Positions 19,265-60,985 of a DNA stretch of 64,000 bases are shown here, piece after piece. Below the pieces are notes generated by a model. That model saw nothing but the letters and a program-made list of their open reading frames with translations. It was not told where the DNA came from and searched no databases. A program made the translations under genes and the position numbers. Each line of letters starts with the position of its first letter. The stretch's first letter is position 1. This stretch comes from an uncultured Candidatus Rokubacteria bacterium (lineage in GTDB: Bacteria; Methylomirabilota; Methylomirabilia; Rokubacteriales; DASRDR01). The DNA lies in NCBI GenBank assembly GCA_963826115.1, contig CAWGVS010000006.1, forward strand, positions 672,001 through 736,000. Reading direction: 5' to 3'.

Positions 19265-19289
19265 CGAATCCCGTTGGAGCCACCACCGT
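19265..19289 (+). repeat. Second att-like copy of the tRNA-Glu 3' end
   Basis: CGAATCCCGTTGGAGCCACCACCGT, exact 25-bp match to 4406-4430. Confidence 0.92.
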
Positions 19290-19323
19290 CCGTCGCCGCC
19301 CGCCACCCCGACCGCGGCGCGGC

Positions 19324-19707
19324 TCAGAGACTCCGCTTCCGCCCTCGCAACCCCCGGCGGCTGCCCTTGCGCTTCACCGGTCGCCCGCCCGCGGGCGGCC
19401 GATCCCGCCCAAAGCTCGGGACGCGCGGCTCGAACGATCGCGGGCCCGCCGAGCGGGCCGGCCGGTCCTCGGCCGCGTTGACCGTCAGCCGGCGCCCCTC
19501 GACTTCGCGGTCGTTGAAGAGCTGGATCGCCGTGGCGGCCTCGGACTCGGAGGCGAACTGGACGAACGCGAAGCCCCGGGGCCGCCCGGTCTCGCGATCC
19601 GAGGGCAGGTAGACCTCGACGACGCTGCCGGCTTCGGACAGGAGCGCGGTCAGCGAATCGGCGGTGGTGCCGAAGGTCAGATTCCCGACGAAGATGCGGG
19701 TCGCGAT
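19324..19707 (-). CDS. RRM RNA-binding protein with basic tail (127 aa), ATC start; missed by the ORF track
   Basis: RNP2 IFVGNL, RNP1 RGFAFVQF; GGAGGA 7 nt before ATC; in-frame TAA 8 codons upstream; tail KRKGSRRGLRGRKRSL. Confidence 0.9.
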   Translation of the reverse strand: MATRIFVGNLTFGTTADSLTALLSEAGSVVEVYLPSDRETGRPRGFAFVQFASESEAATAIQLFNDREVEGRRLTVNAAEDRPARSAGPRSFEPRVPSFGRDRPPAGGRPVKRKGSRRGLRGRKRSL

Positions 19708-19771
19708 GGCTGGTTCCTCCCGTGTTGGTTAGAGTCGGAGTGTGTCGATCACCGGCGCTGGTCGCTCAGGC

Positions 19772-20011
19772 TCAGTACTCTTCACGGCGGGCTTCGCGGG
19801 CCGCCGCGGCGGCCCGGATCTCCTCGGCGAACATGCCCACGTGGAGCGGACACGGGGGCGCATTCGCCTCGACGTACTGGCACTCGTCCTGGTTGCACTG
19901 GACGAAGTGCTCGCCCGGTCCCATGAGACGGGTCAACCGCGTCAGCCGGATGAGCACGGGCTCCGACACGACGGGACACCAGAACTCGCGGGGGCGGGAA
20001 CGGCCCGACAA
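19772..20011 (-). CDS. Small 4-Cys hypothetical protein (copy 1)
   Basis: REFWCPVV...CNQDECQY...PPCPL; near-identical paralog at 60068-60304; TTG start uncertain. Confidence 0.78.
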   Translation of the reverse strand: MSGRSRPREFWCPVVSEPVLIRLTRLTRLMGPGEHFVQCNQDECQYVEANAPPCPLHVGMFAEEIRAAAAAREARREEY

Positions 20012-20142
20012 TCCTCAGGCCTTCACGGCCGGCGGCCGCGCGCGGCGGTGGCCGGCTCGCCCGGCGCCGCGGATCCGTTCAGCCTCGCGGACTGGGAGTC
20101 CCGGGTCGATCCGAGGATCGGCGCCGCAACCACGGCAGGGCT

Positions 20143-20457
20143 TCAGGATGCCCGGCCGAGCCGCTCGAGATGCTTGGCCAGCTTCGCGGCCTGGATGTAC
20201 TCGTCCTGGCGACCCGACGTGGTCAATCGGTATCCGCGCTCGCCCTCGTGCTTCCACATCGTGATCAGCCCGGCCCGGTACGCGGCGATCAGCGCCTCGC
20301 GGTCCGCCGCCGGCATCTCGGCGGGCGCCACCGGAGGCGCCACGGGCTTCGTCCGCCGTCGTGGCACGGGCTGTCGTGTCGCGGGCTGGGCGGCGCGAGC
20401 TCGCCGGCCGGCCGGGGAGGGAGTCGGGGAGGGCGCAGGAGATGGCCTTGACCGCAT
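20143..20457 (-). CDS. Small hypothetical protein (copy 1); start at 20457 (leaderless) or GTG 20367
   Basis: Core DREALIAAYRAGLITMWKHEGERGYRLT..GRQDEYI conserved in the paralog at 60415-60645. Confidence 0.72.
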   Translation of the reverse strand: MRSRPSPAPSPTPSPAGRRARAAQPATRQPVPRRRTKPVAPPVAPAEMPAADREALIAAYRAGLITMWKHEGERGYRLTTSGRQDEYIQAAKLAKHLERLGRAS

Positions 20458-20491
20458 TGCCCTAGTGTACTACTGTGGTCATACAGTTCAA
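20448..20491. promoter_or_regulatory. Overlapping divergent promoters with a GntR-type operator
   Basis: Plus strand TTGACC-17-TACTGT; minus strand TTGAAC-16-TACACT; operator GTGTACTA-N8-ATACAG at 20465-20486; 25 bp identical to 61000-61024. Confidence 0.75.
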
Positions 20492-20711: not shown

Positions 20712-20918
20712 TTGTTGAGGATCCCGGTCTTCGACAATCAGATCGAGCCCGCGCTGAAGTCCCTCAAGCGGGAGATGCTGAAGGACGGGCTGTTCAAGGA
20801 GATGAAGCTGCGGGCCTTCTACGAGAAGCCCTCAGTGAAGCGCAAGCGCAAGCAGGCCGAGGCCCGCAGGAAGCGACGGAAGGCCCTGGCCAGGCGCGCG
20901 CGGACCATGGGTGACTGA
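20712..20918 (+). CDS. rpsU: 30S ribosomal protein bS21
   Basis: IEPALKSLKR...EMKLRAFYEKPSVKRKRK; TTG start. Confidence 0.92.
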   Translation: MLRIPVFDNQIEPALKSLKREMLKDGLFKEMKLRAFYEKPSVKRKRKQAEARRKRRKALARRARTMGD

Positions 20919-21000
20919 GCCAGGACGTGACCTGATGCAGCCGATGCCTCCACGGGATCGGCGCCGGGCGGCCGGAGCGACGGCCCCGGAGGGAGAAGCC

Positions 21001-21222
21001 ATGCCTTCAGTGACCCCGACGTGCCCCCTCTGTTCGTCCCCGGTCCTCGTGGGCGCCTACAACATGTCGAGTCACGGGGAGATGGCGCACCTGAAGTGCC
21101 CGCCGTCGCCCGCCTCCGGCAACCGGTGGCCCGAGGGCGTCCGGCAGATGGTCTGCCTGAACTGCAGCCGGACCTTCCCGAGCGAATCGAAGATGCAGCG
21201 TCTCTGCCGGGCATGCCGGTAG
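21001..21222 (+). CDS. Small double zinc-finger-like protein (73 aa)
   Basis: GGAGGGAG RBS; CPLC...H..C and CLNC...CRAC. Confidence 0.7.
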   Translation: MPSVTPTCPLCSSPVLVGAYNMSSHGEMAHLKCPPSPASGNRWPEGVRQMVCLNCSRTFPSESKMQRLCRACR

Positions 21223-21580: not shown

Positions 21581-21895
21581 ATGGCGTCCAAGCTTTATGT
21601 CGGCGGTCTGTCCTATTCCACCACCTCCGAGAGCCTGCGCGAGTACTTCGGCCAGTGCGGCACGGTCGAGTCGGCCACGGTGATCACCGATCGCATGACC
21701 GGTGATTCCCGCGGATTCGGATTCGTCGAGATGTCGACGGAGGCCGAGGCGCAGGCGGCCATCAGCAAGCTGAACGACCAGTCGTTCGAGGGTCGGAAGC
21801 TGATGGTGAACGTGGCGAAGGCACCCGGGTCGGGCGGCGGTGGCGGCGCGCGGTCCGGTGGCTTCGGCGGTCCCCGCAAGACGGCCCGCTGGTAA
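21581..21895 (+). CDS. RRM RNA-binding protein with Gly-rich tail (Rbp-like)
   Basis: KLYVGGL (RNP2), RGFGFVEM (RNP1); AAGGAGG RBS. Confidence 0.95.
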   Translation: MASKLYVGGLSYSTTSESLREYFGQCGTVESATVITDRMTGDSRGFGFVEMSTEAEAQAAISKLNDQSFEGRKLMVNVAKAPGSGGGGGARSGGFGGPRKTARW

Positions 21896-22084: not shown

Positions 22085-23185
22085 ATGGCCGTCCCCATCC
22101 GCCTGCGCGTCGACGCCCGGAGCCCGATCCCGATCCGCTGGCAGCTGGCGGAGCAGCTCAAGCACGTCGTCGAGGCGGGCGGCGTCCCGCGGGACCAGCC
22201 GCTGCCCAGCATCCGGGAGCTCGCCGGCTTTCTCGGCATCAATCCGAACACCGTGGCGCGCGCGATCGAGGATCTCAAACGCAGCGGCCACGTGGAGGCG
22301 CGCCGTGGCCGGGGCGTCTTCGTGGCCGGGGCGTCGCCGCCGCGCCCGTCCCTGACCCACCGCGAGGGCTTCCTGAAGGACACGGTGATCCGCGCGGCCG
22401 CGCTCGGCCTGACGCCCGATGACGTGGCGGTGGGCGTCCTGAGCCTGGCCAGTGTCGGCGTCGCCGCCCTCCGGGCGACCGCCGAGGTGCTCCTCGTCGA
22501 GTGCAGCGCGCCGGAGCTCGAGTTCTTCGCGCGCGAGCTCCAGGCCCAGCTGCCGGTCCGGGTGGCCAAGGTGCTCCTCAAGGACCTGGCGACCACCGTG
22601 GGGCGGCAGGCGCGCCCGGGCCACTGGGCCGCGGCGGTGACCAGCTTCGGGCATCTCCCGGAGGTGGAGCGCCTCCTGGAGGGTCTGGGGGTCCCCGTGC
22701 TCGCGCTCCTGGCGGAGACGCATCTCGAGACGCTGCAGCGCCTGGCTCAGCTGCCGCGCGGCGCGCGGGTGGGGGTGGTCGCCGCGGCCGTGGAGACGAC
22801 GCACACCGTGGAGCACTCGATCGCCGCCGCCGCCCTGCCGAACATCGCGCGGATCGAGACGTGTCCCGCCGAGGGGCCCGCGCTCCAGCGGCTCGTGCGC
22901 CGGGTGAGCGTCATCGTCTGCTCGAGCTCGACCGCCAAGCAGGTCCAGGGCCTCGTGGATCCGGCCGTCCCCGTGATCGTCGACGATCGGGCTCTCAACC
23001 AGCGCGCCATCCAGATGCTGGGGGCCGTGCTGGCGCAACGCGGCGTCGACCACCCGCCCGCGCCGCCGGCGTCGGCCCCGGTCGCCCGGAAGCCGCCCGG
23101 TCGTCGGCCGTCCGGGGCTGTCTCTCTGCCCGCGCCCCGCCTCGCGCCACGGCGAGCCGGCAACCGGACGGCGCGGAGGACCTGA
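22085..23185 (+). CDS. GntR-family regulator, YtrA-type wHTH with PlmA-like C-terminal domain
   Basis: PIPIRWQL...LPSIRELAGFLGINPNTVARA...GRGVFV; long alpha/beta C-terminal region. Confidence 0.88.
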   Translation: MAVPIRLRVDARSPIPIRWQLAEQLKHVVEAGGVPRDQPLPSIRELAGFLGINPNTVARAIEDLKRSGHVEARRGRGVFVAGASPPRPSLTHREGFLKDTVIRAAALGLTPDDVAVGVLSLASVGVAALRATAEVLLVECSAPELEFFARELQAQLPVRVAKVLLKDLATTVGRQARPGHWAAAVTSFGHLPEVERLLEGLGVPVLALLAETHLETLQRLAQLPRGARVGVVAAAVETTHTVEHSIAAAALPNIARIETCPAEGPALQRLVRRVSVIVCSSSTAKQVQGLVDPAVPVIVDDRALNQRAIQMLGAVLAQRGVDHPPAPPASAPVARKPPGRRPSGAVSLPAPRLAPRRAGNRTARRT

Positions 23186-59580: not shown

Positions 59581-59602
59581 CGCCACGGCGAGCGCCGTGG
59601 CG
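59581..59602. terminator. Hairpin between convergent genes
   Basis: CGCCACGGC-GAGC-GCCGTGGCG perfect stem. Confidence 0.45.
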
Positions 59603-59625
59603 GGGATCCGCGACCGCGCGCTGGC

Positions 59626-60009
59626 TCAGAGGCTGCGCTTCCGACCTCGCAAGCCGCGGCGGCTGCCCTTGCGCTTGACCGGTCGCCCGCCCGCAGGCGG
59701 CCGATCCCGCCCGAAGCTCGGGACGCGCGGCTCGAACGACCGCGGGCCCGCCGAGCGGGGCGGCCGGTCCTCGGCCGCGTTGACCGTCAGCCGGCGCCCC
59801 TCGACCTCGCGGTCGTTGAAGAGCTGGATCGCCGTGGCGGCCTCGGACTCGGAGGCGAACTGGACGAACGCGAAGCCCCGGGGCCGCCCGGTCTCGCGAT
59901 CGGAGGGCAGGTAGACCTCGACGACGTTGCCCGCCTCGGACAGGAGCGCGGTCAGCGAATCAGCGGTGGTGCCGAAGGTGAGATTCCCGACGAAGATGCG
60001 GGTCGCGAT
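59626..60009 (-). CDS. RRM RNA-binding protein, copy 2 (127 aa), ATC start; missed by the ORF track
   Basis: Near-identical to 19324-19707, differences mostly synonymous; GGAGGA-7 nt-ATC; in-frame TAA 8 codons upstream. Confidence 0.9.
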   Translation of the reverse strand: MATRIFVGNLTFGTTADSLTALLSEAGNVVEVYLPSDRETGRPRGFAFVQFASESEAATAIQLFNDREVEGRRLTVNAAEDRPPRSAGPRSFEPRVPSFGRDRPPAGGRPVKRKGSRRGLRGRKRSL

Positions 60010-60067
60010 GGCTCGTTCCTCCCGTGTCGTTTAGAGTCCGGTCGTGTCGGTCACTGGCGAGGGTCCC

Positions 60068-60304
60068 TCAGGCGCCCTCGCGGCGGGCTTCGCGGGCCGC
60101 CGCGGCGGCCCGGATCTCCTCGGCGAACATGCCCACGTGGAGCGGACAGGGGGGCGCATTCGCCTCGACGTACTGGCACTCGTCCTGGTCGCACTGGACG
60201 AAGTGCTCGCCCGGCCCCATGAGACGGGTCAGCCGCGTCAGCCGGATGTGCACGGGCTCCGACACGACGGGACACCAGAACTCGCGGGCACGGCCTGCGC
60301 GCAG
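60068..60304 (-). CDS. Small 4-Cys hypothetical protein (copy 2), probable CTG start
   Basis: REFWCPVV...CDQDECQY...PPCPL; CTG 60304 aligns with TTG 20011. Confidence 0.7.
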   Translation of the reverse strand: MRAGRAREFWCPVVSEPVHIRLTRLTRLMGPGEHFVQCDQDECQYVEANAPPCPLHVGMFAEEIRAAAAAREARREGA

Positions 60305-60414
60305 CTCTCAGGCCCTCATGGCCGGCGGACGCGCGCGGCGGTCGCCGGTGCGATCAAACACCCCGGGCGCCCCCGCCTCGCGTACGAGCATCAGCGCGGC
60401 AATCACGCGGGGCT

Positions 60415-60645
60415 TCAGGATGCGCGGCCGAGCCGCTCGAGATGCTTGGCCAGCTTCGCGGGCTCGATGTACTCGTCCTGGCGGCCGGACATGGTCAATC
60501 GGTATCCGCGCTCGCCCTCGTGCTTCCACATCGTGATCAGCCCGGCCTGGTATGCGGCGATCAGCGCCGCGCGATCCGTCGGGGGCGTATCGACGGGTGC
60601 CGGAGCTGGTGAAACCACGGCCTTTGTTCGCTTTCGTGTCGCCAT
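60415..60645 (-). CDS. Small hypothetical protein (copy 2)
   Basis: GAGGGAG RBS; MATRKRTK...DRAALIAAYQAGLITMWKHEGERGY. Confidence 0.78.
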   Translation of the reverse strand: MATRKRTKAVVSPAPAPVDTPPTDRAALIAAYQAGLITMWKHEGERGYRLTMSGRQDEYIEPAKLAKHLERLGRAS

Positions 60646-60985
60646 GATCGGCACTCCCTCGCCAGGTTGCCATCCGGTGGCGGATCGAACGCGTGTCCGC
60701 CAGGCAGCTCAACCGGCACGTGACAGGCTCGGTCCCGCGTGGTCGCTGAGGATGACAGAGGCCCGGTCGTCCTGCGCGTGAACGGCATCGGCCGCCACGG
60801 AAGACCGGATCAGTCTCCCGAGACGGCAGCTCATGCGGGACACGACCGTGACCGAACGCGGTGTTCCGCGCGCGCCGGCGTGGCCATCCCGTGGCCGGTG
60901 TCATCTCGGTGGTGACGTGAATGCTCCACACGCGGCCGCCTCATCGGCGGGGAGATCTCGAGAGCGTGCGGACGCGGGTAGGACC

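Follow-up and report, generated by a model that had tools for sequence, protein, structure and literature searches.

Predicted AUU and AUC start codons behind a strong Shine-Dalgarno site predominate in a family of bacterial RRM genes from several soil and sediment phyla

To our knowledge, few non-canonical start codons are deeply conserved, and the textbook case is that of infC. In the available part of PMC5472188, infC is reported to begin with AUU in E. coli and with AUC in Streptomyces and to be autoregulated through the discrimination exercised by IF3, which destabilises 30S complexes on non-canonical codons. The same source describes Streptomyces sigR, which has a GTC start behind an extended RBS and is repressed by IF3. 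According to the accessible portion of PMC6868393, assembly-defective 30S subunits bind IF3 poorly, escape its scrutiny and accept non-cognate starts, and the corresponding portion of PMC5499595 presents AUU mRNAs as poor competitors at low temperature and non-AUG mRNAs as those hardest hit by nutrient limitation or ppGpp.

Here we describe two copies of a gene for an RNA-binding protein with an RRM domain in DNA of an uncultured Candidatus Rokubacteria bacterium; the whole stretch that was analysed, 64,000 nucleotides long, is called the window. Each copy appears to start with ATC. The explanation that we favour as a whole is that of an AUC-started RRM gene which has inherited a design of strong Shine-Dalgarno (SD) site and AUU/AUC codon, and whose translation IF3 would gate. 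Such a mechanism would belong to a class already known from infC and sigR. The literature that we searched, with subscription journals and supplements outside its scope, held no description of an AUU or AUC start in bacterial RRM genes and, as far as these searches reach, the conservation of ATT/ATC throughout a family of RNA-binding proteins and across several phyla is new. A second family that keeps AUU/AUC over several phyla behind a strong SD site provides a natural test bed, which bears on whether bacteria regulate genes besides infC through IF3 proofreading.

The two RRM genes of the window

Both copies lie on the minus strand (Table 1) and open alike, copy 1 reading ATC GCG ACC CGC ATC TTC GTC GGG AAT from the ATC. 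A sequence-only reading of the window had described the same start region in both, namely GGAGGA, seven nucleotides and ATC, an in-frame TAA eight codons upstream, and an RRM domain devoid of in-frame ATG, GTG or TTG; inspection of the two minus-strand copies bore out each of these points. Read in frame from the ATC, copy 1 has no canonical start codon before GTG at codon 111, and copy 2 none before TTG at codon 120; each of these falls in the C-terminal tail, past the RRM domain, and a listing of ORFs of at least 40 aa with ATG, GTG or TTG starts contains none in the RRM frame at either copy. The copies differ in 17 of 128 codons, where 15 differences are synonymous and two non-synonymous, and at 16 positions in the 70 nt 5' of them, one of which falls inside the SD spacer. 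The predominance of synonymous change, together with the divergent upstream region, indicates a coding sequence under purifying selection rather than a read error, in agreement with the earlier reading, which had thought such an error unlikely in view of the differences elsewhere and in the SD spacer. The in-frame 'residues' 5' of the ATC differ between the copies (P/T and P/R), as expected for non-coding sequence.

Table 1. Positions of the two RRM gene copies, their start regions and neighbouring genes, counted from the first letter of the window.
Feature	Position	Strand	Remarks
RRM gene, copy 1	19324..19707	-	ATC 19707-19705; 127 codons; TGA stop 19326-19324
Shine-Dalgarno of copy 1, GGAGGA	19715..19720	-	7 nt (ACCAGCC) 5' of ATC
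In-frame TAA of copy 1	19729..19731	-	8 codons 5' of ATC, without intervening canonical start codon
RRM gene, copy 2	59626..60009	-	ATC 60009-60007; 127 codons; stop 59628-59626; protein 98% identical to copy 1
Shine-Dalgarno of copy 2, GGAGGA	60017..60022	-	7 nt (ACGAGCC) 5' of ATC
In-frame TAA of copy 2	60031..60033	-	8 codons 5' of copy 2 ATC
Small Cys-containing ORF B (…GEHFVQCNQDECQYVEANAPPCPLHVGMFAEEIRAA…)	19772..20011	-	directly 5' of copy 1; own start uncertain; second copy 60068-60265
Small ORF A	20143..20457	-	first gene of duplicated unit; second copy 60415-60654
rpsU (bS21)	20712..20918	+	TIGR00030, 63.4 bits; divergent from copy 1 cassette
Glycine-rich RRM paralog, ATG start	21581..21895	+	downstream of rpsU; control for aligned start

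The product of copy 1 has its RRM domain at residues ~3-80; a disordered linker comes next, and then a basic tail, KRKGSRRGLRGRKRSL. It matches Pfam RRM_1 (PF00076) over residues 5-74 with 73.6 bits, against a cut-off of 20.7, and the residues of RNP2 (F6, V7, G8, N9) and RNP1 (R44, G45, F46, A47, F48, V49) are invariant in 22 sequences. An AlphaFold2 model based on 22 orthologs has the canonical RRM fold, with strands at residues 4-8, 29-33, 47-51 and 75-78 and helices at 16-23 and 54-64; pLDDT is 81-86 across the domain, and the model shows disorder beyond it, in linker and tail. The last ~14 residues, a KGSRRGLRGRKRSL-type tail, are invariant or nearly so in the 22 orthologs, and within the window's genome the tail motif occurs in the two copies and nowhere else. 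NCBIfam family NF058537 (Rbp_regulator) matches with 75.9 bits, below its curated cut-off of 100 bits, just under which the ATG paralog at 21581-21895 also falls (99.7 bits). Each copy is probably an intact, translated gene, to judge from its sequence, and would encode an RNA-binding protein of ~127 residues made up of the RRM, the disordered linker and the invariant basic tail.

The proposal that ATC is the start codon is backed by aligned genes, and the codon is kept far beyond the two paralogs. The position aligned to the ATC sits five codons before the RNP2 aromatic residue; it is occupied by ATG (five) or GTG (two) in seven other RRM genes of the window's genome, and orthologs with a canonical start place their ATG or GTG exactly there. 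In the AlphaFold2 model, strand beta1 of the RRM begins three residues after the ATC, at residue 4. Together with the SD site, the TAA eight codons upstream and the lack of a canonical codon before the tail, this makes ATC almost certainly the initiation codon in both copies.

Contigs from RNA libraries show the presence of a sequence in the libraries, rather than its transcription or translation. One soil contig (X1, record 8), from a library that may contain DNA, spans 19652-19785 and retains the ATC, its one difference being at 19678, while other contigs of 88-95% likeness cover the start without a change at the start codon. Ten soil or rhizosphere RNA runs account for small shares of the stretch (0.04-0.12). 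Most contigs match no more than the RNP1 region, which many RRM genes share, and are therefore uninformative on expression level or habitat.

Start codons across the family

The tabulation of start codons in tail-bearing orthologs, which the sequence-only reading had suggested, yielded ATT or ATC, and not ATG, as the rule. Among the window's own genome and 60 relatives, an ortholog was found at E <= 1e-25 in 21 of 61 genomes; the 23 loci with the 5' end present, which leave out locus L029 where a contig end cuts it, have ATC (8), ATT (14) or ATG (1) at the aligned codon. A scan with one genome per species gave at least 595 candidate stretches. A relative is encoded by at least 549 of them, from which the best 80 were retained. 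From 104 loci, 102 were parsed (L029 and L079 lay outside the pattern) and reduced to 88 distinct genes, with ATT in 59, ATC in 24, a further ATC shifted by a codon in one (L110) and ATG in four. An even draw of Acidobacteriota, comprising 151 genomes, supplied 21 loci from the 20 genomes that matched at E <= 1e-22; the 16 tail-bearing genes among them have ATT (6), ATC (2), ATG (7) and GTG (1), that is, canonical starts in 8 of 16, and the five loci without the tail have ATG (4) and ATT (1).

When merged, with six rows without the tail excluded and L117 removed as a duplicate, these sets contain 102 distinct tail-bearing genes from MAGs of Rokubacteria, Acidobacteriota, Binatia, Myxococcota and Zixibacteria. 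The aligned codon is ATT in 63, ATC in 27, ATG in 11 and GTG in one, and ATA is absent from the 102. ATT or ATC (ATY) is thus found in 90 of the 102 and a canonical codon in 12, a share of 88% that is biased upward because the set is mostly drawn from the best 80 of at least 549 scan matches, which are the loci most like the query. The occurrence of ATT/ATC in 90 of 102 orthologous genes is more than chance. A strong SD site with AUU/AUC is, in the sequences compared, the predominant state of a family that spans several soil and sediment phyla, and it is probably the ancestral state of the tail-bearing RRM family.

A quick maximum-likelihood tree of the 102 genes has six changes between ATY and canonical starts and one clade of six members that is entirely ATG, and in a tree of the first 88 genes the ATT, ATC and ATG states changed 15 times; since these trees have few columns and many unresolved forks, the counts are minima. 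In the same lineage, the starts of rpsU are TTG (6), ATG (4) and GTG (2) in 12 distinct contexts, a mixture which indicates that start codons are free to drift in these genomes, while the RRM start remains ATY. An Acidobacteriota subclade (L120, L123, L124, L131, L095 and L128) combines ATG starts with KGSRRN-type tails and a weak or displaced SD, and the proteins of L120, L123, L124, L131 and L128 are longer, at 132-156 aa.

The genomes in the scan are MAG bins labelled as Rokubacteria/Methylomirabilota, Acidobacteriota, Binatia, Myxococcota or 'delta', Zixibacteria and a few others. Some of the labels conflict with the genes. An 'Ilumatobacteraceae' row is 85% identical to Rokubacteria rows and evidently represents a mis-binned MAG; the RRM rows of L035 (Ilumatobacteraceae) and L037 (Vicinamibacterales) have 76-85% identity to Rokubacteria rows; and the RRM gene of L011 (G030) is identical to that of L010/L034 (G005), though G030 is assigned to another family of the order. 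The conflicts at L011, L035 and L037 are likely, from this sequence identity, to be binning errors in public MAGs.

A strict scan of the window's genome for other ATY starts (GGAGG or AGGAG 4-16 nt 5' of the start, a length of 100 codons or more, GC3 >= 0.80 and no nearby canonical codon, a combination that misses infC) produced 15 candidates, among which only the two RRM copies resembled genuine proteins by eye. The one other protein-like, SD-led ATC candidate is on contig C10 of this genome (G000), on the minus strand at script coordinate 507921 (IVTILHDQTQAIEREQLYEQLKLASAQLEL…); it may be internal to a longer gene.

Possible roles of the start codon and competing readings

By analogy with infC, we lean slightly towards the view that translation of the RRM mRNA is gated by IF3 proofreading. 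Initiator tRNA would read the AUC, which has a strong SD site at optimal spacing before it, and IF3 would reject 30S complexes on AUU/AUC, such that the mRNA would load ribosomes well and commitment would occur only under relaxed proofreading. Such relaxation might follow from a shortage of IF3 relative to 30S subunits, or from immaturity of the 30S. Output would fall in starvation (ppGpp) or in the cold, where non-AUG starts compete poorly, and the RRM protein would be co-regulated with infC, itself apparently AUC-started in the window's genome. There, as read from the sequence, infC has an apparent ATC start that follows the thrS stop by 5 nt and has no canonical codon close to it; in other genomes, the apparent infC start is ATC in G007 and G061, ATT in G064 and TTG in G063, which is flagged as unpublished, and in G062 infC was not found. 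The infC of G000 lies outside the window, at about 22224-22260 on the minus strand of contig C7, where the thrS stop is TAA. Its frame is open for hundreds of codons upstream, and gene callers are therefore likely to extend infC.

The strength of the SD site varies with the start codon. Predicted pairing with the anti-SD averages -9.8 kcal/mol in ATY members against -6.5 kcal/mol in canonical ones (n = 90 and 12; Mann-Whitney p = 0.003, with kinship ignored and the 12 canonical rows deriving from about six events), and in 74 of 90 ATY members 5-8 nt separate the SD core from the start. Across the family, start-codon quality and SD strength are inversely related in the sequences at hand. In 87 anchored sequences, RNAalifold returned no consensus pair around the start (-45 to +60 and two sub-windows), and the mean unpaired probability around the start is flat. 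Positions -3 to -1 are G, C and C in 72%, 73% and 91% of 88 genes; a special role for the conserved C at -1 was considered and dropped, because ordinary ATG genes of the window's genome show the same preference (185 of 341).

The main rival to IF3 gating accepts ATY as the start and regards it solely as an expression set-point, which would keep synthesis of an RNA-binding protein that may be harmful both modest and constant, any dependence on IF3 being a by-product without physiological use. We regard this as possible, if on the doubtful side. It treats 'strong SD + weak codon' and 'weak SD + ATG' as interchangeable solutions, and the weaker or badly placed SD sites of canonical-start members are as a simple constraint on total output would predict. 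It also accommodates the replacement of ATY by ATG or GTG on at least six occasions, the stability of the six-member ATG clade and the canonical half of the even Acidobacteriota sample. The ATY start is not universal, and these repeated replacements, with 8 of 16 genes ATY in the even sample, imply that IF3 sensitivity is dispensable. A mere set-point fits less readily with the narrowness of the choice: low output is reachable in many ways, including GTG or TTG and a weak SD, yet 90 of 102 genes have exactly ATT or ATC, with no ATA and one GTG, while the neighbouring rpsU drifts across all three canonical codons. Moreover, the same architecture is regulatory in infC and sigR, according to the available text of PMC5472188.

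A second alternative holds that the ATY codon is an internal isoleucine and that translation begins elsewhere: it might start from a near-cognate codon farther 5', be coupled to the preceding gene, or start farther downstream and yield a truncated protein. This is very improbable. In 37 of the 90 ATY members some canonical codon does lie between the upstream in-frame stop and the ATY, and numerous database models are N-extended, but in 52 members the interval back to the closest in-frame stop holds none, and the stretch 5' of the ATY is not conserved as protein, as the P/T and P/R differences of the window copies illustrate. The upstream gene changes (rpsU, ORF B or unrelated), yet SD, spacing and ATY stay constant. 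The first downstream canonical codon comes after residue 5 in 84 of 90, where a start would cost part of strand beta1 and RNP2, and orthologs and paralogs have ATG or GTG at exactly the ATY codon. Finally, that the copies are pseudogenes in decay or result from an error of assembly or sequencing, to which the missing canonical start and the metagenomic source with an estimated contamination of 5.3% might point, is scarcely credible and already contradicted by the comparative data, in view of the 15 to 2 ratio of synonymous to non-synonymous differences, intact RRM frames in about 100 genomes and the same ATC in an RNA-library contig independent of the assembly.

An ATY start has consequences for annotation. 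Among the best 120 database relatives, 117 have the tail; 7 of these begin at the aligned codon, 55 are N-extended, with Ile at the true start in 54, and 55 are truncated, with RNP2 lost in 43. Over 90% of the public models in this set therefore have a misplaced N-terminus: some are wrongly extended so that they overlap their neighbours, and others have lost the front of the RRM. The earlier prediction that standard gene callers miss the gene holds in so far as the start is misplaced in most models (7 of 117 are right); it fails for the NCBI protein P0088, which is L046 translated from ATT, so that at least one NCBI annotation already places the start at ATT; this match rests on a genome flagged as unpublished. 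In the window, antisense ORFs with canonical starts lie inside both RRM genes, at 19274-19612 (+, 112 aa) and 59597-59914 (+, 105 aa), and a caller restricted to ATG, GTG and TTG might report these Arg/Pro/Ser-rich artefacts instead of the RRM gene.

Gene neighbourhood and likeness to described systems

Each RRM copy is the last gene of a duplicated unit of ~1.03 kb on the minus strand, consisting of ORF A, ORF B and the RRM gene, at 19324-20460 and 59626-60660, 40.3 kb apart. Identity between the units begins inside ORF A, the copies of which have only their C-terminal ~60 residues in common, and ends just past the RRM stop. The ORF B stop is 64 nt before the ATC of copy 1, and the ORF B frame also precedes the RRM gene in the genus relatives L010 and L018; neither ORF has a Pfam or NCBIfam match.

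RRM genes flank rpsU on both sides in the window, the ATC-start gene divergent upstream and the ATG-start glycine-rich RRM gene downstream. Between rpsU and the latter is an ORF of 103 aa (20911-21222, +), Cys-rich and zinc-ribbon-like; it overlaps the stop of rpsU and matches no family. The rpsU gene itself opens with two consecutive TTG codons (20712-20717), and as relatives have ATG, GTG or TTG at the second, it probably starts there, at 20715, giving MRIPVF….

A linkage of the RRM gene to bS21, also put forward from the sequence, is present in the window and in some Rokubacteria, but it does not extend to the family at large and makes a weak argument for tuning by initiation-factor status. 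Copy 1 has rpsU 1005 nt away on the opposite strand, and copy 2 has none within 1.5 kb. At nine of the 104 loci, a count that includes duplicates, rpsU immediately precedes the RRM gene in the same orientation, and the bS21 match ends 65-179 nt before the RRM match begins; at eight it is divergent at about 1 kb, and at 87 there is none within 1.5 kb, four of these having less than 400 nt of upstream sequence. All tandem and divergent loci belong to relatives in the window's order, the tandem arrangement only to some Rokubacteria families. The linkage is, in the loci compared, real but specific to the Rokubacteria lineage. A cyanobacterial rbp-rpsU cluster was reportedly described by Sato in 1994, a reference cited in PMC12232666, and the placement of the RRM gene right after rpsU in some Rokubacteria recalls it; in the window, the two genes are neither adjacent nor co-oriented. 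Outside Rokubacteria, a Pfam search of 111 flanking ORFs at 28 loci revealed no recurring neighbour, the RNA-related DEAD helicase, RNase E/G and pseudouridine synthase occurring once each.

It is conceivable, though we think it unlikely, that the RRM protein with the basic tail is a factor associated with the ribosome or with initiation, that its synthesis is coupled to initiation fidelity, and that with infC it forms a small, ancient 'IF3 regulon' in Rokubacteria, Acidobacteriota, Binatia and Myxococcota. If so, weak proofreading, through little IF3 per 30S or through immature 30S subunits without late proteins such as bS21, would raise initiation at AUU/AUC, and the extra RNA-binding protein would act on rRNA or mRNA to bring the system back into balance. 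Such a ribosomal connection would have left its traces in the rpsU-RRM tandem of some Rokubacteria and in the invariant basic tail.

Of the systems described, infC is the closest in design: in the accessible text of PMC5472188 it has, like the RRM family, AUU or AUC behind an SD site, is conserved across distant lineages and is routinely mis-annotated. The RRM product, however, is not IF3, so that any control by IF3 would be open-loop control of a target and not autoregulation; the conservation is incomplete, with 12 of 102 genes canonical, and dependence on IF3 is here proposed by analogy. The same partial source (Feeney et al. 2017) presents sigR as likewise a regulatory gene with a very strong RBS and a non-canonical start, lineage-conserved and mis-annotated; it differs in its GTC codon, in its class of protein and in its restriction to one genus, and its control by IF3 was shown experimentally. 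As proteins, cyanobacterial Rbp1/2/3 and Bacteroides RbpB/RRM-1 (the latter in PMC11697453 and PMC13370968) resemble the present family in having one RRM_1 domain of ~80 residues and a short C-terminal extension. The tail of the present family is the invariant basic KGSRRG-x-R-x-RKRSL, in contrast to a Gly-rich or PDPRWA-type tail, and the text consulted on those proteins makes no mention of a non-canonical start. Rare ATT starts are described for E. coli pcnB and Enterococcus faecalis ebpA in the part of PMC4447247 available, where they attenuate expression; there they belong to single species or narrow groups, whereas the trait of the RRM family spans phyla.
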